Source: Clostridia bacterium (GTDB lineage Bacteria; Bacillota; Clostridia; UMGS1883; UMGS1540). Taken from it: DNA of 64,000 nucleotides. The notes beneath the pieces were generated by a model. It saw nothing but the letters and a program-made list of their open reading frames with translations, had not been told where the DNA came from and did not search any database. Numbering within the stretch: position 1 is the stretch's first letter; each line of letters begins with the position of its first letter. A program made the position numbers and the translations under genes. The stretch covers positions 7,617 to 71,616 of the forward strand of contig JAZSIR010000001.1 of assembly GCA_045533905.1 (NCBI GenBank), given 5' to 3'. Below, piece by piece: positions 1-19,051 of the stretch.

Positions 1-2109
1 GGTGTTATGACAGCATCTATTCAGGCAGTTATGATGCCAAAGCTTGTTCCTGACGCAGAATATATGGAATTTAATTCGATATCAGATTTGATTGCAGCAC
101 TTAACAGTAACAAAATAGATGCTTTTGGCTGCGATGAATCCTTATATACATCAATGCTTTGGGAAGGTCAGGCAGTTGACCGCATTGATGAGCCTATTGA
201 TAAAAGTAATTATGGACTTATATTCCAAAAGGGCAAAAAACTTGAGCTTCAGAACGAGGTTAATGAGTTTATTGCCACGATAAGTGCAGACGGAACGCTT
301 AAAGCGTTGGAAGAAAAATGGTTTGGTGCGAAAGAACCGACAGAGTTTGCATCATATGAAAACTTAAATGGAACAAAGGGCACAATTACAGTTGCCACCA
401 ATTCTGCTTCCATGCCGTTTGTATATCGCAAAAATAATAAATTTGTCGGCTTTGATATTGAATTTATTACCGCCTTTGCCAAAGAATACGGCTATAATAT
501 TAAGTTTGAAGATACAGAATTTGCAGCTATTCTCAGCGGTGTTGGGTCAGGAAGATATGACCTTGGTATATCGGGCATTACCATAACCGATGAAAGAAAA
601 GAAAGTATGGACTTTTCTGATGTTTACCACGTAGAAGATCTTGCTGTAATTATAAGAAGAGAAGCAGGTGCAGATGAACTTTCGCAGTTTAACAGCGCAA
701 CACTCGGTGTTGTTACAGGCTCACTATACGGTGGATATTCTAAAGAGCAGTTCCCGGGCGCAAGCATCAAAGAGTTTAACAACTTCTCTGATGTTCTTGT
801 TGCCTTAAAGCAAGGCAAAGTTGACGGGATTATGCTTGATAAACCAAACTTTAACTCCGTTGCACGAACAGACAAGAGCCTTAAATGTATCATAGTTCCC
901 GCATATTCTGTGGAAATCGGTTTCGGATTCCAGAAAAATGACGGTGGCGATGCACTTCAGGCACAGATGAACGAGTTTTTGGCAAAGCTTGATAGCGATG
1001 GTACAACAGAGAAGCTCATAGATAAATGGTATGGCGAAACAGAGCCGGAAGAGACTATTGCATTAGAAGAACTTAAGGCAAACGAAAAGACACTTAATGT
1101 ATCTATCGACACAACAAGAAAGCCTTTTGTATATATGTATAAAGGAAAACCTGTGGGATTTGAAATTGAAGTCCTTTATATGTTCTGTAAGGAATATGGC
1201 TACAATGTAAATATCTCGGATGTTTCCTTTGCATCAGGACTTGCAGGCTTGGCAAGTGAAAAATATGACCTTGTTTGTGGCGGACTTTATATGACGCCTG
1301 AAAGAAAAGAAAGTGTAAACTTCTCCAATCCTTATATGAACGCAGAAGTTGTTATGGCAAAATGCGAAAGGTCAGGATTTGATAACTTTATGTTATCCAT
1401 TAAGGAGAGCTTTGAAAAAACCTTTGTAAGAGAGCAAAGATGGAAGCTGATTGTAGAGGGTATTTGCACCACAATGATTATAAGCTTGTTCTCCGCTTTG
1501 GGCGGAACACTACTTGGCTTTGCGCTTTATATGGCGGCACGCAGCAAGAAGAAGTGGCTCTCTAAACTTGCTAAAGGAATAGCAAAAGTGTATTCCACAA
1601 TTATTGCAGGCACACCTACGCTCGTTGTACTTATGCTTTTGTTCTATGTGGTATTCACTTCTCCCGATATGAGTGGAATTGTAGTTGCAATCGTCGGCTT
1701 TATACTGACCTTCGGCTCATTTGTTTACGATAATCTTGCATTAACCGTGTCAGGCGTTGACAACGGACAACTTGAAGCTGCATATGCTCTCGGCTATTCA
1801 AGAAACAGAACATTTTTCAGAATCATTCTGCCGCAGGCAATGAAGATGTTTGTGCCAAGTTATTCGGGCGAAATTGTAAACCTCATAAAAGCAACATCCG
1901 TTGTTGGTTATATAGCAGTAAACGACTTAACCAAAATGGGAGATATTATCAGAGGTAATACATACGAAGCTTTCTTCCCGCTTATTGCAGTTGCAGTAAT
2001 TTACTTTGCAATCACATGGGTTATAGCAGGACTTCTCGGAATTTTAAGAAAGAAAACCGAACCAAAAAGAAGAAAGAATAAAAACATATTAAAGGGGGTT
2101 GTAAGATGA
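1..2109 (+). CDS. Polar amino acid ABC transporter, fused substrate-binding domains plus permease (His/Glu/Gln/Arg/opine family). Probably 5'-truncated by the window edge, because the N-terminus begins inside an SBP domain with no signal peptide.
   Basis: ORF 7..2109 shows repeated SBP_bac_3-like segments (GFDIEF..KEYGYN.., DLGISGITITDERKESMDFS) followed by a C-terminal permease with the EAA-like motif (ALGYSRNRTFFRIILPQA). The stop overlaps the next gene start (ATGA). Confidence 0.8.
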   Translation, partial: GVMTASIQAVMMPKLVPDAEYMEFNSISDLIAALNSNKIDAFGCDESLYTSMLWEGQAVDRIDEPIDKSNYGLIFQKGKKLELQNEVNEFIATISADGTLKALEEKWFGAKEPTEFASYENLNGTKGTITVATNSASMPFVYRKNNKFVGFDIEFITAFAKEYGYNIKFEDTEFAAILSGVGSGRYDLGISGITITDERKESMDFSDVYHVEDLAVIIRREAGADELSQFNSATLGVVTGSLYGGYSKEQFPGASIKEFNNFSDVLVALKQGKVDGIMLDKPNFNSVARTDKSLKCIIVPAYSVEIGFGFQKNDGGDALQAQMNEFLAKLDSDGTTEKLIDKWYGETEPEETIALEELKANEKTLNVSIDTTRKPFVYMYKGKPVGFEIEVLYMFCKEYGYNVNISDVSFASGLAGLASEKYDLVCGGLYMTPERKESVNFSNPYMNAEVVMAKCERSGFDNFMLSIKESFEKTFVREQRWKLIVEGICTTMIISLFSALGGTLLGFALYMAARSKKKWLSKLAKGIAKVYSTIIAGTPTLVVLMLLFYVVFTSPDMSGIVVAIVGFILTFGSFVYDNLALTVSGVDNGQLEAAYALGYSRNRTFFRIILPQAMKMFVPSYSGEIVNLIKATSVVGYIAVNDLTKMGDIIRGNTYEAFFPLIAVAVIYFAITWVIAGLLGILRKKTEPKRRKNKNILKGVVR

Positions 2110-3197
2110 TTAAGATAAATCACTTAAAGAAAGAATATGCAAATGTTACTCCCTTAAAGGATGTAAATGTTCATATTCATAAGGGCGATGTCATTTCTAT
2201 TATTGGTCCTTCAGGCACCGGTAAATCAACCCTTATCAGATGTATCAATATGCTTGAAACTCCCACTTCCGGCGATATTTTCGTTAACGGTGAACGAATT
2301 ACCGACAAAAAATGTAACATAAACAAAATCCGTCAGAAGATGGGTATGGTGTTCCAATCCTTCAATTTGTTTAACCACATGAACATTATTGAAAACATTA
2401 TGGCAGCACCTATGGACTTACTTAAAAAATCAAAGCAGGATGCTTATGACGACGGTATGGAGCTTCTTCGCACAGTTGGTCTTGCAGATAAAGCCTTTAA
2501 CTATCCCGATGAGCTTTCAGGCGGTCAGAAACAGCGTGTTGCCATAGCAAGAGCACTCGCAATGGAACCCGAAATAATACTCCTTGATGAGCCGACATCG
2601 GCGCTCGATCCCACAATGGTCGGTGAAGTTCAGGCGGTAATTAAAGACCTTGCAAAAAAAGGCTTAACTTTAATGATAGTAACTCACGAAATGCGATTTG
2701 CAAGAGAAATTGCAAACAGAGTTTTCTATATGGATGAAGGCGGTGTTTATGAAGACGGAACACCTGAAGAAATCTTCGATAATCCAAAGCGAGAAAAGAC
2801 AATCAGATTTATTAAGCACCTTAAAGTATTTGAAAATCTTATCACCTCAAAGGATTTCGACTTTATAGGCTTTAATACATCTTTAGAAGAATTCGGCAGA
2901 CGAAATCAGGTTCCGCAGGAAACCATTTACCGCGCACAGTCGGTATTTGAAGAACTTGTTGTGCAATGTCTTCTTCCAAAGCTTGAGGAAGAGTTTACTC
3001 TAAGTATTGCCTTTGAATATTCTCAAGATGAAGAAACACTTTCGATGATTATGAAATATGACGGAGAACATTTCGATGTACGAAATACACCTAATGTTAT
3101 TTCGTTTGCTATTGCTGAAAATGCATCAGAAAGCATTGATTATACTGAGTGTAACGACGGTAATTTTACAAACCTCGTGACGGTGAAAATCAAATAA
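2106..3197 (+). CDS. Polar amino acid ABC transporter ATP-binding protein (GlnQ-like) with a C-terminal extension of about 120 aa that resembles a degenerate RsbW/SpoIIAB (GHKL) anti-sigma-factor domain.
   Basis: Walker A GPSGTGKST, signature LSGGQKQR and Walker B ILLDEPTSALD are present. The C-terminal block ESIDYTECNDGNFTNLVTVKIK aligns with DDIAYEYKDGHNILKIKK of the RsbW-like kinase at 13992..14402, and MIMKYDGEHFD aligns with its G1-box region. Confidence 0.85.
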   Translation: MIKINHLKKEYANVTPLKDVNVHIHKGDVISIIGPSGTGKSTLIRCINMLETPTSGDIFVNGERITDKKCNINKIRQKMGMVFQSFNLFNHMNIIENIMAAPMDLLKKSKQDAYDDGMELLRTVGLADKAFNYPDELSGGQKQRVAIARALAMEPEIILLDEPTSALDPTMVGEVQAVIKDLAKKGLTLMIVTHEMRFAREIANRVFYMDEGGVYEDGTPEEIFDNPKREKTIRFIKHLKVFENLITSKDFDFIGFNTSLEEFGRRNQVPQETIYRAQSVFEELVVQCLLPKLEEEFTLSIAFEYSQDEETLSMIMKYDGEHFDVRNTPNVISFAIAENASESIDYTECNDGNFTNLVTVKIK

Positions 3198-3209
3198 CGA
3201 GGTGATAAA

Positions 3210-4781
3210 TTGGAACAGTATAATTTTTCAAACAGCAATATTGACCTTGCCTGTGAGGATGTTGGCGTTTTTCTGACATCGGTCGGAGTGGAAAAACGCG
3301 AAGTTTTGCGAAACAAACTCACCCTTGAGGAAATACTCCTTGAATACCAAGCAAAGTTTGGTGAAGAAGCGAACTTTAAGGTAAGATGCGTAAACCGCTT
3401 TATGACCATCAAGGTTGAGTTAATTGTTTCGGGACGGGTTTACAATCCGCTTGAAAAGAACGAGGAAGAAAACATCATACATGGAATTTTGGCAGGTATC
3501 GGTCTTGCCCCCTCATACGGATACAGAAACGGAAAGAATTATATCATTTTCACTCCCAAGAAAAAACCGTTGTCAAGCACGGTTAAAATGGGTGTGGCGA
3601 TTGGACTTTCGCTCATTTGCGGTTTTTTCCTTAATCTTCTGCCCGATTCAGTTAGAGCAGGTGCAAGCAAATATGTACTTTCGCCTGTGACCGATGCGTT
3701 TATGGGATTGATTTCGGCTGTATCGATTCCGCTGATTTTCTTGTCTGTCCTTGGTAGCATCTGCTCTATGGGCAACATGGAAACTCTCGGCAAAATTGGA
3801 AAAAAGACCATTAAAACTATTCTCCTGTATTTGACGGCGTTCAGTATACTTATGACAGCACTTGGAAGCTTGTTCTTTCACGTACAGTGGGGTGGCGGAG
3901 GAGCATCAGGTTTCTCACAGGTTTTCGATTTGATTTATAACATCATTCCATCGAATATGTTTGAACCTTTTATAACGGGAAATACTCTGCAGCTTATCTT
4001 CATTTCCATTATAGTTGGACTTGCAATGCTTGTCCTTTCGACAAGAGTGAACGGTGTTTTCAAACTTGTCGAACAGTTGGGCGCGATTGTGCAAACAATT
4101 ATGTCAGGACTTTCATCTATGCTGCCGATTTTGATTTTTGTACTCTTTACGGGAATGATATCCGGCGGAGAGTTCGGAACTCTGCTTGATTCTTGGAAGA
4201 TTATTGCAGTTTTCCTGTTGCTCGTTATGGTTTACTATGCAACAACTGTTTTGTACATTGCATTTAATAAAAAAATTTCGCCGGCTTTGCTATTAAAAAA
4301 GACATGGAAGACGCTTATTATTGCTCTTACAACTGCATCTTCTGCTGCGGCATTCCAAAAAAATATTCGCGATTCAAACAAAAAGTTTGGTATTGACAAA
4401 CGTCTCGCGGAATTTGGGGCATCCTTGGGACAAGTGTTGTTCAGCCCTGCTGATGTTGCTATTCTCATTGCAATGGAGGTTGGGTTTGCGGAAATGTATG
4501 GCATTGCGATCACTCCGCAGTTTTTAATCATTGCGTTGATCACGAACCTACTTTTGTCATTTTCCATTCCTCCCGTACCCGGAGGCTCTGTGATGGGATA
4601 CACTATTGCATTCACACAGCTTGGTATTCCTTTGGAGGTTATGGGTGTTGTTCTTGCCTTGGATGCGATCATTGATTTTCCGGCAACAGCGTGCAACATT
4701 TCGGGATGGCAGCTTACAATGATTGAGGTTGCTGACTCGCTCGATATGCTCGATAAAGAAACACTTTGCAAAAAGAGATGA
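3210..4781 (+). CDS. DAACS (sodium:dicarboxylate/amino acid symporter) family transporter with an N-terminal extension of about 120 aa that is homologous to an RsbW/SpoIIAB-like domain. Paralog 1 of a tandem pair.
   Basis: About 400 aa polytopic membrane core. The C-terminal motif VLALDAIIDFPATACNISGWQL matches the SDF-family 'GxDRxLDMxRTxVNVTGD' region. N-terminal blocks IDLACEDVGVFL, IKVELIVSGRVYNPLEKNEEE and HGILAGIGLAPSYGYRNGKNYIIFTPKKK parallel IDIAIDELFGNI, VVITFIDNGVPYDPLAKAEPD and GGLGIYMV..YEYKDGHNILKIKK of the kinase at 13992. Confidence 0.6.
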   Translation: MEQYNFSNSNIDLACEDVGVFLTSVGVEKREVLRNKLTLEEILLEYQAKFGEEANFKVRCVNRFMTIKVELIVSGRVYNPLEKNEEENIIHGILAGIGLAPSYGYRNGKNYIIFTPKKKPLSSTVKMGVAIGLSLICGFFLNLLPDSVRAGASKYVLSPVTDAFMGLISAVSIPLIFLSVLGSICSMGNMETLGKIGKKTIKTILLYLTAFSILMTALGSLFFHVQWGGGGASGFSQVFDLIYNIIPSNMFEPFITGNTLQLIFISIIVGLAMLVLSTRVNGVFKLVEQLGAIVQTIMSGLSSMLPILIFVLFTGMISGGEFGTLLDSWKIIAVFLLLVMVYYATTVLYIAFNKKISPALLLKKTWKTLIIALTTASSAAAFQKNIRDSNKKFGIDKRLAEFGASLGQVLFSPADVAILIAMEVGFAEMYGIAITPQFLIIALITNLLLSFSIPPVPGGSVMGYTIAFTQLGIPLEVMGVVLALDAIIDFPATACNISGWQLTMIEVADSLDMLDKETLCKKR

Positions 4782-4790
4782 GGTGGTTAA

Positions 4791-6365
4791 TTGGAACAGT
4801 ATAATTTTTCAAACAGCAATATTGACCTTGCCTGTGAAGAAGTCGGTGAGTTTCTTTCCAAAGTCGGTGTAGAACGACGCGAGGCTCTCCGAACAAAGCT
4901 CACATTTGAGGAAGTATTGCTTGAATACCAATCCAAGTTCGGAGAGGAAGCCACCTTCAAGGTGAGACTTCTGAAACGCTTGTCCTCTATAAAGGTCGAG
5001 ATCATCGTAGAAGGAGAATCCTACAACGCTCTTGTCAAAAACAGCGACGAGGGTGACGTGATACAAGGTCTGCTTGCAGGTATCGGTCTTGCTCCTACTT
5101 GGAATTACAAGAACGGTAAAAATTACATCGTATTTATACCAAAGAAAAAACCGCTGTCCGGCACGGCCAAAATGGTCGGTGCAATCGGACTTGCGGTGAT
5201 TTGCGGAATTATCTTAAATCTCTTGCCAGACGGAATCAGAGCAGGCGCAAACGATTATGTGCTAACACCCGTAACGAATGCGTTTGTGGGACTTATCTCA
5301 GCAGTATCAGGGCCGCTGATCTTCCTATCGGTTCTCGGCAGTATCTGCTCCATGGGCAATATGGAAACCCTCGGCAAGATCGGAAGTAAGACGATTAAGG
5401 TTATCCTTCTTTATATGACGGTAATCGCAGTATTGATGACCGCATTCGGCTGCCTGTTTTATCACATTGAAATGGGTGGCGGAGGGACATCGAGCTTCTC
5501 GCAGATTCTCGATTTGATCTATGACATCATTCCGTCAAATCTGTTTGAACCCTTTGTAACCGGAAATGCTTTGCAGCTGATCTTCATTTCCATCATGGTC
5601 GGACTTGCAATGCTTGTCCTATCGTCGAGAGTCAGTGGCGTGTTCAAGCTCGTGGAACAGCTCAGCTCCATCGTGCAAACGATTATGTCGGGGCTGTCCT
5701 CAATGCTTCCGATTCTGATATTTGTTCTCTTTACGGGAATGATTTCAAGCGGTAACCTTGGTGCAATTCTCGATTCTTGGAAGATGATATTAGTCATCGT
5801 GCTAATGATTGTAGTTTACTACGTACTGAATCTTCTGCGAATCTCCCTTATGAAAAAGATACCGCCGGCTTTGCTGATGAAGAAAGCGTGGCAGACACTT
5901 CTCATTGCACTTACCACCGCATCCTCGGCTGCCGCGTTCGGTACGAACACCCGTGATGCAAACAAAAAGCTTGGTATTGACAAAAAGCTTGTTGAGTTCG
6001 CAACTCCCATCGGTCAGGTATTGTTTATGCCCGGATATGTCGCCATGCTTTTTTGTATGGAAATGGGCTTTGCGGAATCCTACGGTCTTCCGATTACTCT
6101 ACCGTGGATATTTATCGCTCTTATCACAAATCTTTTGTTATCATTTGCAGTCCCGCCCGTGCCCGGTGGTGCAATGATGGGATTTACGATTGCTTTTACA
6201 CAACTCGGCATTCCTATGGAGGTTATGGGTATTGCGTTGGCGGTGAACGCTATCATTGATTTCCCCTGTACAGCCTGCAATGTTTCAGGATGGCAGCTTA
6301 CTCTTATTGATGTTGCTGACTCACTTAATATGTTGGATAAAGAATCATTACATAAAAATAATTAA
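4791..6365 (+). CDS. DAACS family transporter with the same RsbW-like N-terminal domain. Paralog 2, about 70-75% identical to the preceding gene.
   Basis: Same architecture and motifs as 3210..4781 (IKVEIIVEGESYNALVKNSDE; VNAIIDFPCTACNVSGWQL). Tandem duplication with a 9-nt spacer. Confidence 0.6.
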   Translation: MEQYNFSNSNIDLACEEVGEFLSKVGVERREALRTKLTFEEVLLEYQSKFGEEATFKVRLLKRLSSIKVEIIVEGESYNALVKNSDEGDVIQGLLAGIGLAPTWNYKNGKNYIVFIPKKKPLSGTAKMVGAIGLAVICGIILNLLPDGIRAGANDYVLTPVTNAFVGLISAVSGPLIFLSVLGSICSMGNMETLGKIGSKTIKVILLYMTVIAVLMTAFGCLFYHIEMGGGGTSSFSQILDLIYDIIPSNLFEPFVTGNALQLIFISIMVGLAMLVLSSRVSGVFKLVEQLSSIVQTIMSGLSSMLPILIFVLFTGMISSGNLGAILDSWKMILVIVLMIVVYYVLNLLRISLMKKIPPALLMKKAWQTLLIALTTASSAAAFGTNTRDANKKLGIDKKLVEFATPIGQVLFMPGYVAMLFCMEMGFAESYGLPITLPWIFIALITNLLLSFAVPPVPGGAMMGFTIAFTQLGIPMEVMGIALAVNAIIDFPCTACNVSGWQLTLIDVADSLNMLDKESLHKNN

Positions 6366-6384
6366 AAGAAAGAGGTAGATTACT

Positions 6385-6681
6385 ATGACTATCGAAAAAA
6401 ACTTAAACGGAACCGAACTGACAGTTGCCATTGTTGGCAGACTTGACACAACAACCGCACCTGAACTTGAAGCATCTTTAAAAGAAAGCTTTACTGGTGT
6501 AGAAAAACTTGTGCTTGATTTTGCTTCACTTGAGTATCTTTCTTCTGCAGGACTTCGTGTTCTTCTGGCGGCTCAGAAGGCAATGAACAAGCAGGGCGAA
6601 ATGATTATTAAGAATGTAAACGAAACCATCAATGAAATCTTTGAAGTAACGGGATTTATTGATATTTTGACAATCGAATAA
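6385..6681 (+). CDS. STAS-domain anti-sigma-factor antagonist (SpoIIAA/RsbV-like), copy 1.
   Basis: 98 aa. Carries the conserved phosphorylatable-serine context LEYLSSAGLRVLL. The C-terminal 48 aa are nearly identical to the paralog at 11805..12101. Confidence 0.8.
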   Translation: MTIEKNLNGTELTVAIVGRLDTTTAPELEASLKESFTGVEKLVLDFASLEYLSSAGLRVLLAAQKAMNKQGEMIIKNVNETINEIFEVTGFIDILTIE

Positions 6682-6701
6682 TTGCTTAGGGAGGGCTTTG
6701 T

Positions 6702-7595: not shown

Positions 7596-7599
7596 AAAT

Positions 7600-8313: not shown

Positions 8314-8327
8314 CGGAGGGGGTACTG

Positions 8328-8966: not shown

Positions 8967-8967
8967 G

Positions 8968-10059
8968 ATGAGTCTTGTAGAAATAAAAAATCTTACCAAG
9001 CGTTTCGGAGATAATCTTATTTGGGAGAATGTCAACGAATCTATCGAAAAAGGCGATGTGATAGTTATTGTCGGTAACTCGGGTTGCGGAAAGACAACTT
9101 TCCTTCGGTGTATCAATATGCTTGAAACACCTTCATCCGGTCAGATTTTCATTGATGGTGATGAAATAACTGCAGTCGGTGCTGATATTGATAAAATTCG
9201 CAGTAAAATGGGTATGGTGTATCAGAATTTCAATTTGTTCTCACATCTTACTGTACTTGAAAACATTATTAAGGCACCAATGGTGGTTAATAAGATTCCC
9301 AAGGAGCAGGCAATCAAGGAAGGTATGGAATATCTTCGTATGGTAGGTATGCAAGAGAAAGCAGATTTTATGCCCGATCAGCTTTCGGGCGGACAGAAAC
9401 AGCGTGTGGCAATTGCCCGTTGTCTTGCTATGAAGCCTGAAATCATTCTGTTTGACGAACCGACAAGCGCACTTGATCCTACAATGGTGGATGAGGTTCT
9501 TGCGGTTATTAGAAATCTTGCTAAGAGTGGGTTCACTTGTGTAATTGTAACCCACGAAATGGCATTTGCTAAAAGTGTGGCAAGTAAAATCATCTTCTTT
9601 GCTGACAGAGGAATTTATGAGGAGGCACCGCCTGTTGAGTTTTTTGAGCATCCCAAAAGAGAAAAAACAGTTGCCTTTGTTCGCAAACTCAAGACCTATA
9701 CCTACGAGTCTGAGGTTTGCAATATCGATCTTTATACACTTTTAGTTCAGGTCAACAATTATTGTAGTAAATATGCATTTCCGCTTAAATCTGCAAACCG
9801 TTTTCAATTAGTAGTGGAAGAACTTTTAACCTGTTTGCAAAGTATTGGCGGAGATGGCGAGATGAACTTGACTGTGGCGTATGAAGATACCACAGGCAAA
9901 AAAGAAATTATTTTGCGCGAAAAAGTGTGTAAGGGAAATATACTTGATGCGGAGCAGATGGACGAACTGAGTCTGATGCTTATTAAGAACTGTGCATCCG
10001 ATATTAAGCACTGCGTTGAAAACGGATATAATGTATTAACAATTGAAATAAAAGAATAG
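8968..10059 (+). CDS. Polar amino acid ABC transporter ATP-binding protein with a degenerate RsbW-like C-terminal domain. Paralog of 2106..3197.
   Basis: Walker A GNSGCGKTT, signature LSGGQKQR and Walker B ILFDEPTSALD. The C-terminal FQLVVEELLTCLQS, EMNLTVAYEDTTGKKEIILREKVCKGNILD and DIKHCVENGYNVLTIEIK align to the N-box, G1 and C-terminal regions of the kinase at 13992. Confidence 0.85.
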   Translation: MSLVEIKNLTKRFGDNLIWENVNESIEKGDVIVIVGNSGCGKTTFLRCINMLETPSSGQIFIDGDEITAVGADIDKIRSKMGMVYQNFNLFSHLTVLENIIKAPMVVNKIPKEQAIKEGMEYLRMVGMQEKADFMPDQLSGGQKQRVAIARCLAMKPEIILFDEPTSALDPTMVDEVLAVIRNLAKSGFTCVIVTHEMAFAKSVASKIIFFADRGIYEEAPPVEFFEHPKREKTVAFVRKLKTYTYESEVCNIDLYTLLVQVNNYCSKYAFPLKSANRFQLVVEELLTCLQSIGGDGEMNLTVAYEDTTGKKEIILREKVCKGNILDAEQMDELSLMLIKNCASDIKHCVENGYNVLTIEIKE

Positions 10060-10082
10060 AATTTTCGGCAAGTGAGGTTTTT

Positions 10083-11771
10083 ATGAAACGATTGTTGTAT
10101 GGCGGTACGGTTGTTAATGTGTTCACAGGCGAGCTTGAGCAAACGAACGTGCTGATAGAAAAAGATAAAATTGTAGGTGTTGGTGCATATTCTCCCGATG
10201 ATGCGGATATGACCGAGGATATTACAGGAAAGTACATATGCCCCGGATTTATTGACGGTCATATTCACATTGAAAGCACGATGTTGACACCCTCAGAGCT
10301 TGCAAGACTGTGTATGCCTCACGGAACTACCGCAATCGTTGCCGATCCTCACGAGATTGCCAATGTATGCGGTATGGATGGCATCAAATATATGATGGAA
10401 GCAAGTAGCGGTATCCCTCTCTCGGTTTATTTTACATTGCCTTCCTGCGTTCCCGCAACACCGTTTGATGAATCGGGTGCGGTGCTTGAGGCGGACGATA
10501 TCAGACCACTGTACGAAAACAAGCGAGTTGTAGGACTTGCCGAAATGATGAACTATCCCGGAGTTCTCCTTGGAACGAGCGATGTGTATAACAAAATCGG
10601 TGATGCAATAGAACACGGAAAAGTCATTGATGGCCACGCCCCCTTCTTGTCAGGAAAAGAACTTGATAAATACATTTGTGCAGGTATTACGAGTGACCAC
10701 GAGTGCTCGGATGTGGGTGAAGCGATAGAAAAAATCAGAAAAGGTCAATGGGTGATGATTCGCCAAGGAACGGCTGCTCGTAACCTTGCAGAGCTATTGC
10801 CATTGTTTGATGATGCTTATAGCCATAGATGCGTTCTTGTCACCGATGACCGTCATCCCGCAGACCTTATAAGAGACGGACATATTGATAATATCATCCG
10901 TCTTGCCGCCCGAGGCGGGAAATCAGTTATTACGGCAATTAAAATGGCTACGATACAGGCAGCTCAGTGCTTCGGTTTGCGATTCGTTGGGGCTGTTGCT
11001 CCCGGTTACCGTGCAGATCTTCTTGTACTAAACGACCTTAATGCAGTTGATATTGAAGACGTTTATTCAAAGGGAGAAAAGGTTGTAGAGCGAGGGCAAA
11101 TGAAAGCGTTTGACCGTCCCAAAATTGACGGGGGGTTGTGCGAAACAGTACATAACTCGTTCCATACAAAAGAATTGACGATTGCTGATTTTCACATTGA
11201 AGAAAATAGCAACAAATGTCGAGTGATAGAGATTATTCCCGGTCAGCTTCTCACGGGGGAACAAGTGTGTGAGATTGATTGGAGCAAGAGGAACGGCATT
11301 GACACCACGAGAGACATTCTTAAACTCGCGGTTATTGAAAGACACAAAAACACAGGTCATATTGGACTTGGCTTTATTAAGGGTATTGGAATAAAAAATG
11401 GTGCTATTGCATCCTCCGTATCTCACGATTCACACAATATTATTGTGATTGGCTCAAATGACGAGAATATGGTGATTGCCGCAAATAACATCCGTAAGAA
11501 TGGTGGTAATGTAGTTGTTTCTGCCGGAAAGATTATTGCCGACATGGCATTGCCGATAGCAGGTCTTATGACCAATCTTTCAGGCGAGGAAATTGCCCTT
11601 GCCAATGAAAATGTACGCAAAGCCGTGTATGAGCTTGGCGTGTCGAGGAATATCGAACCTTTTATGAATATGGCGTTTGTGAGTCTGCCTGTAATTCCGT
11701 CACTCAAAATGACGACGCAGGGGCTTGTGAACGTAGATAAACAAGAAAGAATATCGCTTTACTGCGATTAA
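10083..11771 (+). CDS. ade: Adenine deaminase.
   Basis: 562 aa of the amidohydrolase family. N-terminus (LLYGGTVVNVFTG..ICPGFIDGHIHIESTMLTPSE) is typical of Ade. Confidence 0.85.
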   Translation: MKRLLYGGTVVNVFTGELEQTNVLIEKDKIVGVGAYSPDDADMTEDITGKYICPGFIDGHIHIESTMLTPSELARLCMPHGTTAIVADPHEIANVCGMDGIKYMMEASSGIPLSVYFTLPSCVPATPFDESGAVLEADDIRPLYENKRVVGLAEMMNYPGVLLGTSDVYNKIGDAIEHGKVIDGHAPFLSGKELDKYICAGITSDHECSDVGEAIEKIRKGQWVMIRQGTAARNLAELLPLFDDAYSHRCVLVTDDRHPADLIRDGHIDNIIRLAARGGKSVITAIKMATIQAAQCFGLRFVGAVAPGYRADLLVLNDLNAVDIEDVYSKGEKVVERGQMKAFDRPKIDGGLCETVHNSFHTKELTIADFHIEENSNKCRVIEIIPGQLLTGEQVCEIDWSKRNGIDTTRDILKLAVIERHKNTGHIGLGFIKGIGIKNGAIASSVSHDSHNIIVIGSNDENMVIAANNIRKNGGNVVVSAGKIIADMALPIAGLMTNLSGEEIALANENVRKAVYELGVSRNIEPFMNMAFVSLPVIPSLKMTTQGLVNVDKQERISLYCD

Positions 11772-11804
11772 AAATAATAATAATTTAGAAAGAGGTAATT
11801 TATA

Positions 11805-12101
11805 ATGACTATCGAAAAGAACTTAAGCGGTACAGAACTTAATGTAAAGGTGTCAGGCAGACTTGACACAACAACCGCACCGGAACTTGAAGCAGAAGTT
11901 ATGGGCGCAATCTCAGGTGTAACAAAACTTGTACTTAACTTTGAAGCACTTGAGTACCTTTCATCTGCAGGACTCAGAGTACTGCTTCAGGTACAAAAGA
12001 TAATGAACAAGCAGGGTGAGATGATTATTAAGAACGTAAACGAAACAATCAATGAGATTTTTGAAGTAACAGGATTCATTGATATTCTGACGATTGAATA
12101 A
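11805..12101 (+). CDS. STAS-domain anti-sigma-factor antagonist, copy 2.
   Basis: 98 aa. LEYLSSAGLRVLL. Paralog of 6385..6681. Confidence 0.8.
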   Translation: MTIEKNLSGTELNVKVSGRLDTTTAPELEAEVMGAISGVTKLVLNFEALEYLSSAGLRVLLQVQKIMNKQGEMIIKNVNETINEIFEVTGFIDILTIE

Positions 12102-12144
12102 GGTGAACTCCAATGAACCAAACAAGTATTGGAGGGATATACCT

Positions 12145-13995
12145 ATGAAACCAAAAAAGCAAACAAGCATTTCCTACAACTTCCTAAAATGGCTCTTATT
12201 CTTGATGCTCGTCGCCTTTATTGCCACAACCGTGTTCCTGTGGGTATTCCAAACACGACTCGCAAACAACAATGCCGACAATCTCTTGCGGTTGAACATC
12301 ACTGATGTCAAGGCAGACATAAAAGACGCCACCAACGACCATATGCTTGAGATCGTTCGCAACATATCGGCAGAGCTTGACGATATAGATGCAGATACCG
12401 CATCAGAAGAAGAAATGAGTGCACGAATTGCGGAAATGCTCACACGGTACGATGTAACGGAGATTGATATTATCAACAGTAAAGGTATCATCGTGGCGTG
12501 TAATATCGAATCTTTCGTCGGCTTCGATATGGCATCGGGCGAGCAATCCAAAGAGTTCTTGGTGTTGCTCGAAGGCGAAAAGGAAATGGTGCAGGAATTT
12601 CAAGCTCAGTCCTATGACAGCTCCATTGAGCGTAAGTATGCAGGCGCATCGCTTACAAACGGCGGTCTTGTGCAGATTGGTTATGACTACGCGCATTTGC
12701 AGGCGAGCGTTGACCACGAGGTTGTTTCGCTCACCCGTAACCGTCACGTGGGCAACAACGGACGAGTTCTGATTGTTGACCAAGATAAAAACATTGTCAG
12801 CAATGTCAAAGGAATTGACCGTAAAAAACTTGATTTAGAAGCGTTCGGAATAAAACCCGGCTCTGTTCAATCAGGACAACGTGTTACCGCAAACGTAGAG
12901 GGTGTTGATTTCTACTGTATGGCAGAAATGGCCGAAGGCTACTACATTATATCCGCAATACCGGTTAAAGAAGTAACCATCACACGAAATATGGTTGTCA
13001 TTATGGCAGTTGCGGTTGAAATGCTGATATTTATTGCCCTGACGCTTCTTGTCTATCTTTTGATAAAGAAACAGATCGTCGTCAGCGTGAACCGTATCAA
13101 CCATTCGCTATCGGAGATCACAAACGGAAACCTTGATGTTACGATGGACGTGCGTAACAATTTGGAATTTGACTCACTTTCCAACGACATCAACGCAACG
13201 GTAGATACTTTGAAGCGGTACATCAAGGATGCAGAAGAACGCATCGACGCAGAGCTTGCCTTTGCAAAAGCCATTCAGCACTCGGCGTTGCCGTCTGTAT
13301 TCCCGCCTTATCCGAATAGAAAAGAGTTCGAGATCTTCGCCACGATGCACACGGCAAAAGAGGTTGGCGGTGATTTCTACGATTTCTATTTTGTAGACGA
13401 AGATAACCTTGCGTTCTTGATAGCAGACGTATCCGGCAAGGGTGTCCCTGCGGCAATGTTTATGATGCAATCCAAGACCATCATCAAGAGCTGTGCCGAG
13501 TCGGGCATGAGCGTTGAGCAGGTATTCACCGTTGCCAACGAAAAGCTCTGCGAGGGCAATGATGCAGGTATGTTCGTTACCGCCTGGATGGGTATTCTGA
13601 ATACCAAAACCGGCAAGGTACTCTTTGCCAATGCCGGACATAACCCGCCTCTTGTCAAACACGCAGACGGTACATACGAATATCTCAAATCCCGTGCAGG
13701 TTTTGTGCTTGCAGGTATGGAGGGTGTTCGCTACCGCAAGAATGAAGTTGAGCTTGCACCCGGTGATGCGATTTATCTCTACACCGACGGTGTTACCGAA
13801 GCAACCGATCTGAACACCGAGCTTTACGGAGAAGATCGTCTGCATATCGTTCTTGAAAAATACAAAGATGCAGCACCGCAAGTGATCTGTGATGAAGTCA
13901 AAAAGGATGTAGACGCCTTCGTCGGGGAAGCTCCGCAGTTTGATGACATTACAATGCTTGCGCTGAAATACTACGGGAAGGAGGATGCACAATGA
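12145..13995 (+). CDS. Membrane sensor PP2C phosphatase (SpoIIE/RsbU family) with TM, a periplasmic dCache-like domain, a second TM and a HAMP domain.
   Basis: Start chosen at MKPKKQ, which has a GGAGGGA RBS. The ORF track begins earlier, at 12094. TM1 is FLKWLLFLMLVAFIATTVFLWVF, followed by about 270 aa extracytoplasmic, then TM2 and a HAMP-like linker. The PP2C core is GGDFYDF..FLIADVSGKGVPAAMFMM..DGVTEA. The stop overlaps the next start. Confidence 0.75.
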   Translation: MKPKKQTSISYNFLKWLLFLMLVAFIATTVFLWVFQTRLANNNADNLLRLNITDVKADIKDATNDHMLEIVRNISAELDDIDADTASEEEMSARIAEMLTRYDVTEIDIINSKGIIVACNIESFVGFDMASGEQSKEFLVLLEGEKEMVQEFQAQSYDSSIERKYAGASLTNGGLVQIGYDYAHLQASVDHEVVSLTRNRHVGNNGRVLIVDQDKNIVSNVKGIDRKKLDLEAFGIKPGSVQSGQRVTANVEGVDFYCMAEMAEGYYIISAIPVKEVTITRNMVVIMAVAVEMLIFIALTLLVYLLIKKQIVVSVNRINHSLSEITNGNLDVTMDVRNNLEFDSLSNDINATVDTLKRYIKDAEERIDAELAFAKAIQHSALPSVFPPYPNRKEFEIFATMHTAKEVGGDFYDFYFVDEDNLAFLIADVSGKGVPAAMFMMQSKTIIKSCAESGMSVEQVFTVANEKLCEGNDAGMFVTAWMGILNTKTGKVLFANAGHNPPLVKHADGTYEYLKSRAGFVLAGMEGVRYRKNEVELAPGDAIYLYTDGVTEATDLNTELYGEDRLHIVLEKYKDAAPQVICDEVKKDVDAFVGEAPQFDDITMLALKYYGKEDAQ

Positions 13996-14402
13996 AAGAA
14001 CTAACCATTGCCGCAACAGTAGAAAACATTGAAACTGTAACGGACTTCGTAAACGAACAGCTTGAAGCGTTTGATTGCCCTATGAAAGCACAGATGCAGA
14101 TCGACATTGCCATCGACGAGCTTTTCGGCAACATTGCGCACTATGCGTACAATCCCGATGTAGGAGAAGCGACCGTTCGCGTGGAGGTTACCGAAGATCC
14201 TCTTGCCGTGGTAATCACCTTTATTGATAACGGCGTACCTTACGATCCTCTTGCAAAAGCCGAGCCCGACACAACGCTTTCCGCAGAGGAAAGAGACATC
14301 GGTGGTCTTGGCATCTATATGGTGAAGAAGTCTATGGACGACATTGCCTATGAATACAAAGACGGACACAACATTTTGAAAATCAAGAAGAATTTGAATT
14401 AA
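13992..14402 (+). CDS. Anti-sigma regulatory factor / serine protein kinase (RsbW/SpoIIAB-like, GHKL ATPase).
   Basis: 136 aa. N-box DELFGNIAHYAY, G1 FIDNGVPYDP and G2 GGLGIYMV are all intact. Translationally coupled to the phosphatase (ATGA). Confidence 0.75.
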   Translation: MKELTIAATVENIETVTDFVNEQLEAFDCPMKAQMQIDIAIDELFGNIAHYAYNPDVGEATVRVEVTEDPLAVVITFIDNGVPYDPLAKAEPDTTLSAEERDIGGLGIYMVKKSMDDIAYEYKDGHNILKIKKNLN

Positions 14403-14415
14403 AGGATTATTGCAA

Positions 14416-16602
14416 ATGAAGAACTTAAACAAAAAACTTTTGACCTTCGGTATAGTTTTGTGTATGCTTCTCTCGTGTTTTTCGGGAGTGGTATTTGCAA
14501 AGGATATCGAAACAATCGTTATTCTTTATGAAAACGATGTTCATTGTGCAGTAGAGGGTTATTCTAAACTTGCAGCAATGAAAAATGAATTATCAGAAGA
14601 TTATGAATATGTAGGCGTTGTATCCTCCGGCGACTTTGTTCAGGGCGGAACTCTTGGTGCAGTTTCTCGTGGTGAATACATAGTAAGCCTTATGAACCTT
14701 GTGGGATATGATGCCGTAACACTTGGTAATCACGAATTTGATTATAAGCTCCCACGCCTTGATGAACTTGCAGAATTGATGAACACCGAACCTATCTCTT
14801 GTAACTTTCAAAAGATAGGTGAAACTGAATCATATTTTGAGCCGTATTCCATCGTAACCTACGGTGATGTGGATATAGCATATATCGGTATCACAACACC
14901 ATCTACATTGTCCTCATCGTCACCTGCACAGTTTAAGGGTGAAAATGGTGAGTATATTTACACATTCAATGTAGATACCCTTTACGATGTGGTACAGGCA
15001 AGTATTGATTCTGCAAAGGAAGATGGTGCTGATTACATAATCGCCCTTTCTCATATTGGATATGAAGAAGATGAGCAGTATGAGGATGTTGTTGACTTAA
15101 TTGAAAACACATACGGATTTGATGTTGTTCTTGATGCTCATTCTCACTCTGTTATTGAAAATATGAAGCTGACCGATGAGGGCGGAAATGAGGTTGTTCT
15201 TACCTCAACAGGCACAAAGTTTGAAAATATCGGCAAGCTTACAATTTCAGGCGGTGAGATAACAACAGAGCTTATAGAAACTGAGAACTACACAAACACA
15301 GATACAACCGTTGATGCAAAACTTGCGGAAATAAACGAAGCATATTCTGCTCTCGGTAATCGCAAGATTGGTGAAAGCGAAATAGAGCTTATCACGAACG
15401 ATGCGGACGGAAACCGCCTTGTTAGGACAACAGAAACCAATCTCGGCAATTTGTGTGCAGATGCAATTAAAACAGTAACGAAAGCTGATATTGCCTATGT
15501 AAACGGCGGCGGAATCCGTGCACCGATTGAAATTGGCGAAGTATCGTTCAATGACATTTTTAGTGTTTTTCCATTTAACAATCAGATTGTTGTAGCAGAA
15601 ATGACAGGTCAGAAAATACGCGATATGCTTGAAATGTCACTTATGAATTATCCGGCAGAAGATGGCTCTTTCCCTCATGTTGCAGGACTAACATTTTCGG
15701 TTAATAAATCCATTCCAACATCTGTTAAAACAGACGAAAACACAGTTTTTACAGGCGTTGACGGTGAGTATAGAGTTTATGATATTAAAGTATTAAATGA
15801 AGACACAGGCGAATACGAGCCTATTAAACTCGACGGAACATACTCCTTTGCAAGCTTCAACTACTTTGTTTTAGACCAAGGCGGCGGTATGAGTATGTTT
15901 GACGGTGTAAAAATATTAAAGAATGACGGAATGCTTGATGTTGAAGCGTTAGAAACATACATCACAGAAAACCTTGGCGGTGTTATCGGCGAAGAATATG
16001 CAGAGGTAGATAACAGAATCAACTTTACAGACGGTGAAGATGCACTTAATAAGTTCACCGATTTGTCCGATGATGCTTGGTATAGTGATTCTGCAAAGTA
16101 TGTTTTGGAAAACGGTCTTATGAAAGGCGTAACAGATACCACCTTTGCACCAAACGAAAACTTAACAAGAGCAATGCTTGTTACAGTTCTTTACCGTGCA
16201 GAAAATGAACCTGCCACAAACCGCAGCATTCCTTTCTCTGATGTTGATACGGGTGCTTACTATGCAAGTGCAGTTTCTTGGGCAAAGCAGAACGGTATTG
16301 TAAACGGTGTAACAGAAACAGAATTTGCACCGAATGACAATATCACCCGTGAACAGATTGCGGCAATTATGCACAGATACGCACAGTACAAGGGTTATGA
16401 TGTCAGCGTAGGAGAAAACACAAATATTCTTTCCTATGACGATTTTGACAGCATTTCCGAGTATGCAATAGCTTCTATGCAGTACGCTTGCGGCAGCGGC
16501 TTGATTAAGGGTAAATCAGAAAGCACCCCCAATCCGCTTGATAATGCTACAAGAGCAGAAATAGCAGCAATACTTCACAGATTTATTGAAGTGAATAAGT
16601 AA
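14416..16602 (+). CDS. Cell-surface 5'-nucleotidase / bifunctional metallophosphatase with C-terminal SLH domains.
   Basis: Signal peptide, then a calcineurin-like N-domain (ILYENDVHC..GDFVQG..GNHEFD) and a 5'-nucleotidase C-domain. Three SLH-like repeats follow at the C-terminus (FTDLSDDAWYSDSAKYV..; FSDVDTGAYYASAVSWA..). The ORF track starts at a TTG at 14410; the ATG at 14416 is preferred. Confidence 0.8.
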   Translation: MKNLNKKLLTFGIVLCMLLSCFSGVVFAKDIETIVILYENDVHCAVEGYSKLAAMKNELSEDYEYVGVVSSGDFVQGGTLGAVSRGEYIVSLMNLVGYDAVTLGNHEFDYKLPRLDELAELMNTEPISCNFQKIGETESYFEPYSIVTYGDVDIAYIGITTPSTLSSSSPAQFKGENGEYIYTFNVDTLYDVVQASIDSAKEDGADYIIALSHIGYEEDEQYEDVVDLIENTYGFDVVLDAHSHSVIENMKLTDEGGNEVVLTSTGTKFENIGKLTISGGEITTELIETENYTNTDTTVDAKLAEINEAYSALGNRKIGESEIELITNDADGNRLVRTTETNLGNLCADAIKTVTKADIAYVNGGGIRAPIEIGEVSFNDIFSVFPFNNQIVVAEMTGQKIRDMLEMSLMNYPAEDGSFPHVAGLTFSVNKSIPTSVKTDENTVFTGVDGEYRVYDIKVLNEDTGEYEPIKLDGTYSFASFNYFVLDQGGGMSMFDGVKILKNDGMLDVEALETYITENLGGVIGEEYAEVDNRINFTDGEDALNKFTDLSDDAWYSDSAKYVLENGLMKGVTDTTFAPNENLTRAMLVTVLYRAENEPATNRSIPFSDVDTGAYYASAVSWAKQNGIVNGVTETEFAPNDNITREQIAAIMHRYAQYKGYDVSVGENTNILSYDDFDSISEYAIASMQYACGSGLIKGKSESTPNPLDNATRAEIAAILHRFIEVNK

Positions 16603-18486: not shown

Positions 18487-18549
18487 ATACTCACTTCCAC
18501 GATACATATTTTATAATTCCACTACTTTTGAAAATGGCGGCAAAATCGA

Positions 18550-18578
18550 TTGACGCACATCTTGCGATATGTTAGAAT
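18550..18578 (+). promoter_or_regulatory. Sigma-70-like promoter for the recombinase operon.
   Basis: TTGACG, then 17 nt, then TAGAAT. About 240 nt of leader follow before the first ORF. Confidence 0.5.
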
Positions 18579-18959: not shown

Positions 18960-19051
18960 TCTTTTAGTTTTTGTTTAATATTTGTCTGGATATATTAAGT
19001 TATTTGTGGTATTGTTGTCTTGAAAAAAATATGGAAAGGAGTGTGAGGCTG

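Follow-up and report, generated by a model that had tools for sequence, protein, structure and literature searches.

Transporters fused to RsbW-fold pseudokinase domains suggest a partner switch acting on membrane transport in a Clostridia bacterium

Results

Four nutrient transporters with apparently dead kinase domains are encoded together with a complete partner switch, and no sigma factor, in one gene block of a gut Clostridia bacterium, which suggests that the switch controls the transporters and not transcription. On balance, we favor reading the block as a phospho-relay of the partner-switching type that acts on membrane transport in place of a sigma factor. The pseudokinase-fused transporters themselves are real and probably represent a class of output that is new to partner switching; no description of them was found in Pfam, NCBIfam or the literature searched.

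The block spans positions 1–16,602 of the window, i.e., the 64,000-nucleotide stretch of contig JAZSIR010000001.1 analyzed here, and comprises 14 genes, all on the + strand and with identities confirmed by Pfam. An earlier note had described a same-strand block, which holds, with gaps of 0–43 nt; with the start codons chosen in this analysis the gaps range from −8 to +33 nt. The gene set it had named (two STAS proteins, a sensor PP2C phosphatase and an intact RsbW-like kinase) was recovered in full by Pfam. In the order listed below, the first half of the block runs from the SBP_bac_3/permease fusion to the purine nucleoside phosphorylase (PNP) and the second from the permease of importer 2 to the 5'-nucleotidase.

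1..2109, +, fused SBP_bac_3 (at least two) and permease, polar-amino-acid ABC importer 1 (Pfam SBP_bac_3 2.4e-66, BPD_transp_1 8e-20)
2106..3197, +, ABC ATPase 1, GlnQ/TcyN-like NBD (residues 1–240) with C-terminal pseudokinase domain (ABC_tran 1.6e-37)
2826..3194, +, RsbW-fold pseudokinase domain of ATPase 1, residues 241–363
3210..4781, +, DAACS (SDF) symporter 1 with N-terminal pseudokinase domain (SDF 3e-61, residues 129–502)
3210..3569, +, RsbW-fold pseudokinase domain of symporter 1, residues 1–120 (symN HMM, E 8.7e-58)
4791..6365, +, DAACS (SDF) symporter 2 with N-terminal pseudokinase domain (SDF 1.1e-64, residues 127–500)
4791..5150, +, RsbW-fold pseudokinase domain of symporter 2, residues 1–120
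6385..6681, +, STAS protein 1, anti-sigma-antagonist type (Pfam STAS 1e-15; TIGR00377 71 bits, over cut-off)
6702..7595, +, HD-CE phosphohydrolase-like protein (PF24391 1.1e-34)
7600..8313, +, DeoD-type purine nucleoside phosphorylase (PNP_UDP_1 6e-42; NF004489 344 bits, over cut-off)
8328..8966, +, permease of ABC importer 2 (BPD_transp_1 5.6e-13)
8968..10059, +, ABC ATPase 2 with C-terminal pseudokinase domain (ABC_tran 1.1e-36)
9694..10056, +, RsbW-fold pseudokinase domain of ATPase 2, residues 243–363 (atpC HMM, E 3.4e-49)
10083..11771, +, adenine deaminase (Adenine_deam_C 6e-58, Amidohydro_1 3e-34)
11805..12101, +, STAS protein 2 (STAS 1.6e-15)
12094..13995, +, transmembrane sensor phosphatase, dCache-HAMP-PP2C (SpoIIE 2e-51, HAMP 4e-5, dCache_1 1e-3, weak)
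13992..14402, +, intact RsbW-like serine kinase, 136 aa (HATPase_c_2 4e-22)
14410..16602, +, SLH cell-wall-anchored 5'-nucleotidase, the final gene of the block (Metallophos, 5_nucleotid_C 2.5e-32, three SLH)

Homologues of the importer 1 SBP/permease fusion are ~990 aa long, and their residue ~293 is where the alignment to the window copy begins; the first gene is thus truncated at its 5' end by the window start, and the block extends upstream. In NCBIfam, ATPase 1 gave generic polar-amino-acid ATPase matches under the equivalog cut-offs. The two symporters are 72% identical, and importer 2 has no adjacent solute-binding protein gene of its own in the block annotation. The HD-CE gene is found beside a STAS gene again in five related loci (L002, L006, L011, L020, L028).

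The extra domains comprise ~120 aa each, at residues ~241–363 of the ATPases and 1 to ~120 of the symporters. Fold search, profile–profile comparison, Pfam matches and motifs together strongly support their identity as degenerate RsbW/SpoIIAB-like domains, homologous to the kinase beyond chance, and the assignment to HATPase_c/SpoIIAB made in the earlier note is thereby upheld. AlphaFold (AF2) models of two single domains reached pLDDT values of 88 and 95, and the top structural matches were STAS-binding kinases specifically, rather than generic GHKL domains, with SiaB among the best for both; the domain of symporter 1 is 70% identical to the modeled domain of symporter 2. With hhalign, the symporter-domain profile (symN) matched the kinase at 94.6% probability (E 7e-8), and MATE-fused relatives linked all families (kinase 92.7%, symN 96.7%, atpC 94.6%); STAS controls gave ≤1.3%. 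Plain HMMs yielded weak reciprocal matches, the ATPase 2 domain and the kinase formed a collinear BLASTP alignment of 134 aa, and 28 of 58 ATPase-tail relatives matched PF13581 (HATPase_c_2; best E 2.3e-5).

Pairwise identities are just ~17–22%, the four window domains themselves matched nothing in Pfam even at E ≤ 10, and profiles searched against PDB sequences returned no match, as would be expected of an unrelated fold (MetN-type C2/ACT, TOBE) or a chance likeness to the kinase. The fold and profile evidence effectively refutes this explanation, which we consider extremely improbable; the structure search returned the RsbW type where a C2/ACT or TOBE fold had been named as the alternative. 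The block-wise alignment to the kinase proposed earlier was reproduced by hhalign for Blocks 2 and 3 and for the ATPase part of Block 1, but its symporter part was out of register: symporter IDLACEDVGVFL is helix 1 and not the N-box helix, and the kinase N-box helix IDIAIDELFGNI pairs with symporter RTKLTFEEVLLE.

Aligned with B. subtilis RsbW, the intact kinase keeps the N-box Glu and Asn, the G1 Asp-x-Gly and the G2 GGLG. In the extra domains, motif statistics show that the N-box Glu is retained as an invariant EE. The N-box Asn has become E, K, D or Q in the symporter domains, which also carry a 5-residue deletion, and Q in the ATPase tails (Cys or Gly instead in ATPase-2-type rows); the ATPase 2 domain shares with the ATPase 1 family the invariant EE and, further towards the start of the helix, a conserved Gln. 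The G1 Asp is changed to V or Y, and G2 is lost from the ATPase tails and persists as AGIGL in the symporter domains. The loss of motifs is narrower than the earlier note had it: the N-box Asn is gone, but G1 retains its central Gly. With neither the Mg-binding Asn nor the adenine-binding Asp in place, we classify the extra domains as pseudokinases, which, judged from these motifs, can most likely neither bind ATP canonically nor phosphorylate. The ATPase tails may retain residual nucleotide binding since Asn to Gln is a conservative change.

Within this operon-like block, the STAS, phosphatase and kinase genes encode a complete switch. The two STAS proteins are 81% identical, and their Ser54 aligns with the first Ser of the RsbV/SpoIIAA DST/DSS motif (Ser56/Ser58), which we assume to be the phospho-acceptor; by this alignment, both are taken to carry the canonical phospho-acceptor serine. 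In the phosphatase, a dCache-like domain (weakly assigned, E 1e-3) lies between two hydrophobic segments and is followed by HAMP and PP2C (SpoIIE) domains; its closest NCBIfam resemblance, under the cut-off, is to SiaA. In agreement with the earlier note, no sigma factor was detected among the 14 genes of the block by Pfam, among the scanned larger ORFs of the remaining window or in the scanned flanks of homologous loci. The possibility it had raised of a sigma factor gene just upstream is not borne out by homologous loci L011, L015 and L020, in which none was found and the upstream side is occupied by a LytTR two-component system. The switch could still act on a sigma factor, or on some other output, whose gene lies in another part of the genome.

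The ATPase tail belongs to a family of 619 clusters, and related pseudokinase domains are also fused to MATE transporters. Genes of the switch (STAS, PP2C, kinase) are strongly enriched beside these transporters, with 29 STAS genes in the 580 kb around the pseudokinase loci against a background that we estimate at a few STAS genes per Firmicute genome. In the close family, a STAS gene immediately follows the symporter or ATPase gene in nearly every sufficiently long locus; PP2C and kinase genes come next in L003, L009, L012, L014, L020, L028, L031, L052 and L083. The MATE-pseudokinase fusions of L049 and L052, too, share their loci with genes for a STAS protein, a PP2C and a kinase. A STAS gene is present in 22 of 54 loci (counting those with at least 3 kb of flank) and absent nearby from the other ~60%; many more distant family members have none within 10 kb.

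Discussion

From the gene-neighborhood enrichment, we infer that STAS binds the pseudokinase domains and that its phosphorylation state gates transport. In this reading, the dCache domain would sense a cue from outside the cell and thereby set PP2C activity, and phosphatase and kinase would jointly fix the fraction of unphosphorylated STAS, which would dock on the pseudokinase domains as on RsbW or SpoIIAB. We propose that the complex would be long-lived because these domains cannot phosphorylate STAS, and that it would persist until the true kinase captures and phosphorylates the STAS protein. Docking would alter transporter activity. It could affect NBD dimerization or coupling in the ABC importers, similar to the C-terminal regulatory domains of other ABC ATPases, and transport-domain movement in the symporters, and the sign of the effect could differ between ATP-driven and ion-driven systems. 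The domains are all fused at ends that lie in the cytoplasm in these transporter families: the C-terminus of the NBD and of MATE proteins and the N-terminus of DAACS symporters.

Information could also flow in the opposite direction. The transporters would then be inputs, their domains acting RsbT-like or as STAS sinks that, depending on transport state, bind and activate PP2C or sequester STAS and so report transport flux, with the true output (e.g., a sigma factor or another target of the 136-aa kinase) encoded elsewhere. A precedent is RsbT, a member of the RsbW family, whose binding to the PP2C RsbU activates that phosphatase. Two Spirochaetales loci, L022 and L023, have a PP2C gene immediately flanked by the genes for the pseudokinase-fused ATPase and symporter and lack a STAS gene over a distance of 10 kb; L022 also has a PP2C-kinase fusion close by. 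However, the window PP2C has a dCache-HAMP sensor rather than an RsbU-type N-domain and hence already has its own input, no candidate output was found in any scanned locus, and the genes adjoining the close-family transporter genes most tightly are STAS and not PP2C genes. We therefore hold this direction to be possible but unlikely.

Rather doubtful is a role of the domains as STAS-independent regulatory or oligomerization modules of RsbW ancestry, comparable to the regulatory domains of MetN (C2) or MalK, with the partner switch as co-regulated cargo only. Such modules might dimerize, couple importer and symporter by heterodimerization, or bind a small molecule in the remnant pocket as a feedback signal. 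Dimerization is obligatory for RsbW and SpoIIAB, and a ligand could be bound by the invariant EE and the conserved Gln of what was once the nucleotide pocket. A subfamily (L037, L071–L077) has no STAS gene nearby, and in L037 and L071–L074 the transporter pair is adjacent even though none of the three kinds of switch gene lies within 10 kb. Against this stand the STAS density far above the estimated background, the position of STAS as usually the very next gene, the structural preference for STAS-binding kinases and the recurrence of switch genes beside the MATE fusions.

The switch encoded here shares with the RsbU/RsbV/RsbW-sigmaB and SpoIIE/SpoIIAA/SpoIIAB-sigmaF modules of Bacillus the STAS protein with a phospho-acceptor Ser, the PP2C phosphatase and the small GHKL-type HATPase_c_2 serine kinase, and the RsbW/SpoIIAB fold recurs in the transporter-fused domains. 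Unlike in Bacillus, no sigma factor was found, four dead RsbW-fold domains are covalently attached to transporters, and the phosphatase is a transmembrane dCache-HAMP sensor. ABC importer ATPases are known with C-terminal regulatory domains of the MetN C2/ACT and the MalK and ModC TOBE types; these resemble the present tails as ~100–130-aa domains after the NBD that are expected to regulate ATPase dimer closure (cited in PMC7367683), but here the fold is Bergerat/GHKL of RsbW type and the presumed regulator is a phosphorylatable protein rather than a small molecule or EIIA.

Partner switching with a non-sigma output is known from SiaABCD of Pseudomonas aeruginosa, in which the membrane PP2C SiaA and the RsbW-like kinase SiaB set the phosphorylation of SiaC (PMC7647112, PMC8457831), which when unphosphorylated binds and activates the enzyme SiaD (PMC8457831). 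SiaB and SiaA resemble the modeled domains and the phosphatase, respectively, but SiaC contacts the diguanylate cyclase SiaD directly, with no RsbW-fold adaptor domain, and the output is c-di-GMP synthesis, not transport. A STAS protein acting on an ABC ATPase is exemplified by single-domain MlaB, which binds and regulates MlaF directly at an interface that includes the residue equivalent to the SpoIIAA phosphosite, where a phosphomimetic lowers binding (PMC7367683). However, MlaB touches the NBD itself, MlaF lacks an RsbW-like domain, and this Gram-negative lipid transporter has no known kinase or phosphatase for MlaB-MlaF. SLC26/SulP proteins (PMC8256260) also join a component of the STAS/anti-sigma world covalently to a membrane transporter, but with reversed polarity, the STAS domain itself being fused rather than its kinase-fold partner, and with no dedicated kinase/phosphatase pair encoded alongside. 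In All4160/HenR of Anabaena, a partner-switching-like module directly controls a non-transcriptional protein (bioRxiv 10.64898/2026.04.08.717354); STAS is fused there to a glycosyltransferase and neither a pseudokinase receptor domain nor a transporter is involved, but partner switching likewise extends past transcription.

Gene content of the block

Fourteen genes, all on the + strand and separated by -8 to +33 nt, occupy window positions 1-16602. Their Pfam assignments are as follows.

Fused SBP_bac_3/permease subunit, +, gene 1 of the block
ABC ATPase 1, +, 363 aa
Two SDF/DAACS symporters, +, 523 and 524 aa, 72% identical to each other
6385..6681, +, STAS protein 1 (STAS1)
HD-CE protein, +
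DeoD-type purine nucleoside phosphorylase, +
Second permease, +
ABC ATPase 2, +, 363 aa, 44% identical to ATPase 1
Adenine deaminase, +
11805..12101, +, STAS protein 2 (STAS2), 81% identical to STAS1
12094..13995, +, membrane phosphatase, dCache-HAMP-SpoIIE (PP2C)
13992..14402, +, HATPase_c_2 kinase, 136 aa
5'-nucleotidase, +, SLH-anchored

The SBP-permease gene is incomplete at the window edge, its homologues being ~990 aa long and the window copy starting at their residue ~293. The transporter cores score above the Pfam gathering level (ABC_tran 127-130 bits, SDF 208-219 bits), and the nucleotide-binding domains of both ATPases are of the GlnQ/TcyN type, which places them among the ATPases of polar-amino-acid ABC importers (PAAT). 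NCBIfam equivalogs all fell below cut-off for the transporter cores, so that the assignment stays at the generic level of polar-amino-acid ABC and DAACS transporters. Pfam coverage extends over ATPase residues 1-~240 and symporter residues ~127-500, leaving ~120 aa at the ATPase C-termini and at the symporter N-termini. By HMM search, the whole window holds exactly four of these fused domains, one kinase and two STAS genes.

The second ABC system (permease and ATPase 2, window 8328-10059) has no adjacent gene for a solute-binding protein and may use the fused binding domains of the first. Purine salvage and catabolism genes are interspersed with the transporters and the switch (window 6702-8313, 10083-11771 and 14410-16602); they comprise the HD-CE hydrolase, the DeoD phosphorylase, the adenine deaminase and the SLH-anchored 5'-nucleotidase. 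One related locus from another genome has an additional adenosine deaminase (L020:11603-12616).

The fused domains adopt the RsbW/SpoIIAB fold

Relatives were gathered as protein-database fragments, as 26 loci in GTDB genomes found via the symporter domain and as 59 metagenome loci found via the ATPase tail, with ATPase 1-type sequences as the only query of the metagenome scan. Using these alignments, AlphaFold2 modelled the symporter 2 domain with a pLDDT of 88.1 and the topology E-H-H-E-E-H-E-E, and the ATPase 1 tail with a pLDDT of 94.8 and the same topology. The fused domains thus have the Bergerat alpha/beta fold in its compact RsbW/SpoIIAB form. In profile-profile comparison the symporter domain matched the kinase family with 94.6% probability (E 7e-8, 105 collinear columns); the match between ATPase tail and kinase was weaker (E 3e-3), yet collinear. 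Probabilities across comparisons were 92-97%, and STAS controls gave ~1%.

Single-sequence methods returned little. Pfam applied to the four isolated window domains at E<=10 gave nothing relevant and no HATPase_c_2 (PF13581), while 28/58 ATPase-tail relatives matched this family individually at sub-threshold level (best E 2.3e-5); the informative Pfam result therefore comes from the family members and not from the single window domains. In BLASTP the ATPase 2 tail and the kinase share 22% identity in a collinear alignment of 134 residues, which is suggestive only. Searching the symporter and ATPase domain profiles against PDB sequences found no kinase, and the relationship is accordingly one detected only by profile-profile and fold comparison. 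A word-indexed homologue search with single domains retrieved only short metagenomic fragments (just 2 matches for the ATPase 2 tail), and the contig collection contained no exact match to the kinase protein. Judged from sequence profiles, the fused domains are remote homologues of PF13581 and not members by the Pfam cut-off.

The earlier note had read the extra domains as RsbW/SpoIIAB-like, which the AlphaFold2 models, the profile-profile comparisons, the Pfam matches in relatives and a bridging family of MATE fusions bear out. Most of its block alignment to the kinase was in register; its first symporter block was off, having set helix 1 (IDLACEDVGVFL) against the N-box helix of the kinase, whose right partner is RTKLTFEEVLLE.

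Catalytic residues are lost from the fused domains

Aligned to Bacillus subtilis RsbW, the kinase of the block retains all its motifs, namely the N-box Glu/Asn, the G1 Asp-x-Gly and the G2 GGLG. The fused domains lack the N-box Glu and Asn combination, the G1 Asp and an intact G2 box. What they keep is the N-box Glu, as an invariant Glu-Glu, and the central Gly of G1.

Table. Replacement of catalytic motifs in the fused domains
Motif; symporter domains; ATPase tails
N-box Asn (Mg-binding); E/K/D/Q beside a 5-residue deletion; Gln in 54/58
G1 Asp (adenine-binding, DxGxG); Val in 24/26; Tyr in 53/58
G2/ATP lid (GxGxG); lid shortened, AGIGL remnant; absent

On these residue patterns the fused domains are classed as pseudokinases that have lost their catalytic residues.

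MATE transporters carry a related domain

Three related loci encode MATE (MatE) transporters of 583-622 aa with a C-terminal RsbW-like domain (L049:4328-6076, L052:10267-12132 and L056:5185-7023), each gene lying directly downstream of a gene for an ATPase-pseudokinase. A STAS gene lies near the fusion in L049, and STAS, PP2C and kinase genes accompany it in L052. By profile-profile comparison the MATE C-terminal domain matches the kinase (92.7%), the symporter domain (96.7%) and the ATPase tail (94.6%), and an HMM built from the three MATE sequences matches the window kinase at E 1.4e-5. The L056 copy retains the N-box Asn and the G1 Asp and matches Pfam HATPase_c_2 at E 3e-9. MATE is thus, as judged by profile similarity, a third transporter superfamily carrying the fusion, and its domain family ties the kinase, the symporter domain and the ATPase tail together.

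Distribution and gene neighbourhoods

Most relatives come from metagenome-assembled genomes of gut and rumen Clostridia, and two from Spirochaetales genomes. An exhaustive search with the HMM of the ATPase tail returned 619 clusters (50% identity level), of which 241 scored E<=1e-10, and the full-length members among ten scanned with Pfam were ABC ATPases or single-chain SBP-permease-ABC-pseudokinase proteins. Such single chains (865-1161 aa; P0124, P0134, P0169, P0252, P0259 and L084:7631-10363) carry the solute-binding domain(s), the permease, the ABC ATPase and the C-terminal pseudokinase together, so that an importer half and its regulatory domain form one polypeptide.

In the close family the recurrent order is SBP-permease, ATPase-pseudokinase, one or two symporter-pseudokinases and then STAS, with PP2C and kinase genes a few genes further on in nine loci (L003, L009, L012, L014, L020, L028, L031, L052 and L083). 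Among the 54 loci with at least 3 kb of flank, 22 have a STAS gene, 14 a PP2C gene and 11 a kinase gene. The 29 STAS genes found in 580 kb of total flank are well above an estimated background of a few per genome.

Several neighbourhoods depart from this arrangement. The two Spirochaetales loci, L022 and L023, have no STAS gene within 10 kb; a membrane PP2C gene lies between their ATPase-pseudokinase and symporter-pseudokinase genes (L022:8546-9985, L023:4880-6313), a HAMP-PP2C-HATPase_c_2 fusion is encoded ~8 kb upstream in L022 (L022:86-1705), and a gene for a CstA transporter comes after the symporter gene in L022. In the subfamily comprising L037 and L071-L077, ATPase and symporter fusions are paired with no module nearby. 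The distant members L071-L074 (e.g., L071:1451-5970), in which the ATPase-pseudokinase gene stands beside the symporter-pseudokinase gene, have no STAS, PP2C or kinase genes within 10 kb and adjoin two ABC-exporter-type genes of ~740-754 aa; Pfam, run on one of these exporters (L071:1451-3712), identifies a C39-peptidase ABC exporter of the kind used in bacteriocin export.

Other neighbours include an N-terminal STAS domain fused to an APH-type (aminoglycoside-phosphotransferase-like) kinase domain, an unusual STAS architecture, near ATPase-pseudokinase genes (L045:1240-2427 and L084:2605-3840, - strand). An NRPS-like protein of ~1395 aa (condensation, adenylation, carrier, terminal reductase) is encoded directly after a STAS gene in L011 (15673-19857) and L012 (9575-13765), in the latter between the STAS and PP2C genes; the L011 stretch examined has no PP2C gene. 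Elsewhere a membrane acyltransferase (Acyl_transf_3) takes this position (L003:11894-13042, L020:14908-16014).

A partner-switch gene set without a sigma factor

Both STAS proteins match Pfam STAS, and STAS1, the only one scanned, also passes TIGR00377. Ser54 of STAS1 aligns with the first Ser of the DST/DSS motif in RsbV and SpoIIAA, which we take to be the phospho-acceptor (Ser56/Ser58 in RsbV/SpoIIAA). The phosphatase has a SpoIIE domain (E 2e-51) and the kinase a HATPase_c_2 domain (E 4e-22). The block therefore has a STAS protein with its Ser, a PP2C phosphatase and an RsbW-like kinase with intact motifs, and lacks the sigma-factor target. The amino-acid-binding dCache motif of the literature, sought by eye in the phosphatase sensor domain, was not seen, and we thus make no claim about the sensor's ligand.

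Scanning revealed sigma-factor domains neither in the block nor in the larger scanned ORFs of the remaining window (housekeeping DNA and a mobile-element-like stretch), and no sigma factor in the scanned flanks of homologous loci. The earlier note had named a regulated sigma factor just upstream of the window, together with a lack of STAS binding by the extra domains, as grounds for abandoning its reading. On the evidence of homologous loci such a sigma factor is rejected: what immediately precedes the SBP-permease gene in L011 and L015 is a gene pair for a LytTR response regulator and a histidine kinase of the GHKL (HATPase_c_5) type (L011:3760-5713, L015:2-1882). The pair may regulate the block transcriptionally; the equivalent region here falls beyond the window. 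A sigma factor could be encoded elsewhere in the genome.

Proposed mechanism and alternatives

The fold, the loss of catalytic residues, the full STAS/PP2C/kinase set and the genomic linkage are shown, as is the lack of a sigma factor in the block, in the other scanned window ORFs and in the flanks scanned at homologous loci. From the known topology of ABC nucleotide-binding domains, DAACS and MATE proteins, all fusion points are cytoplasmic. We propose that unphosphorylated STAS protein would bind to the catalytically dead domains in the way known from RsbW and SpoIIAB, that it would not be phosphorylated there, and that docking would change transporter activity, the supply of unphosphorylated STAS being set by the real kinase and the sensor phosphatase. 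The gene-neighbourhood enrichment bears on the predicted STAS binding, and we lean slightly towards this mechanism as a whole. The structural interpretation is confirmed; the functional one is a plausible and testable proposal.

Signalling might instead run in reverse, with the transporters activating the phosphatase in an RsbT-like manner or sequestering STAS; we consider this direction unlikely. The STAS association is not universal among the loci, and the fused domains might act independently of STAS as dimerisation, coupling or ligand-binding modules, which we regard as somewhat less probable again. An unrelated fold is effectively excluded: a MetN-C2/ACT or TOBE-type ABC regulatory domain, which the earlier note had named as fatal to its reading, was considered and rejected, as the domains have neither the ACT (beta-alpha-beta-beta-alpha-beta) nor the TOBE (beta-barrel) fold.

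Extending the docking mechanism across the family, we see an even chance that the RsbW-fold pseudokinase domain is a receiver module which is widespread yet has so far gone unannotated. Such modules would link STAS/PP2C/kinase switching to at least three unrelated transporter superfamilies (ABC importer ATPases, DAACS symporters and MATE); in this way nutrient uptake and efflux would be gated by phosphorylation-controlled protein-protein contacts, bypassing transcription.

Relation to known systems

Partner switching is a textbook way of controlling sigma factors, and the block has the components of such systems except this defining target. To our knowledge, non-transcriptional outputs number only a handful, e.g., SiaD, FlgM/HsbD and a glycosyltransferase, and we know of few bacterial transporters that are regulated post-translationally by dedicated signalling proteins, e.g., EIIA-MalK, MlaB-MlaF, PII-AmtB and MetN trans-inhibition. 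Among the functionally closest systems is SiaABCD, in which unphosphorylated SiaC activates the enzyme SiaD (PMC7647112, PMC8457831). MlaB-MlaF is close as well: there an ABC ATPase is bound by a STAS protein, and the interaction becomes weaker when the site equivalent to that of SpoIIAA carries a phosphomimetic (PMC7367683). SLC26/SulP transporters are the mirror image, since they carry a STAS domain (PMC8256260) whereas the transporters here bear the kinase-fold partner. A 2026 preprint still treats the direct regulation of a single enzyme as widening the concept of partner switching (bioRxiv 10.64898/2026.04.08.717354).

Targeted literature searches, Pfam and NCBIfam yielded no description of RsbW-fold domains fused to transporters. 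We read the block as partner switching with what is probably a new, modular class of output. If true, a dead kinase domain would be a modular adaptor making several transporter superfamilies answer one phospho-switch, and at least ~600 sequence clusters now annotated only as 'amino acid ABC transporter ATP-binding protein' would gain a function. The system would also offer a directly testable route from an extracellular cue to rapid control of amino-acid uptake in gut anaerobes. The domains are a clean bacterial case of pseudokinase evolution, with catalysis lost and partner binding presumably kept.

Surroundings of the block

Immediately downstream, window 17401-27566 holds a DUF6076 gene, three tandem genes for large serine recombinases (18971-23064) and a 1365-aa polyvalent protein (PBECR3 nuclease and LPD3). 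At about 27 kb, where housekeeping genes start, GC rises from ~0.39-0.45 to ~0.50-0.53. The block may abut or belong to an integrative mobile element; that it is generally carried with the recombinases is rejected, no recombinase homologues occurring in the 85 related loci. The higher-GC part encodes very large SLH-domain surface proteins, consistent, from their domain content, with an S-layer-bearing cell envelope:

31155-34079, -, SLH-domain surface protein, 974 aa
51263-57943, -, SLH-domain surface protein with Listeria-Bacteroides repeats, 2226 aa
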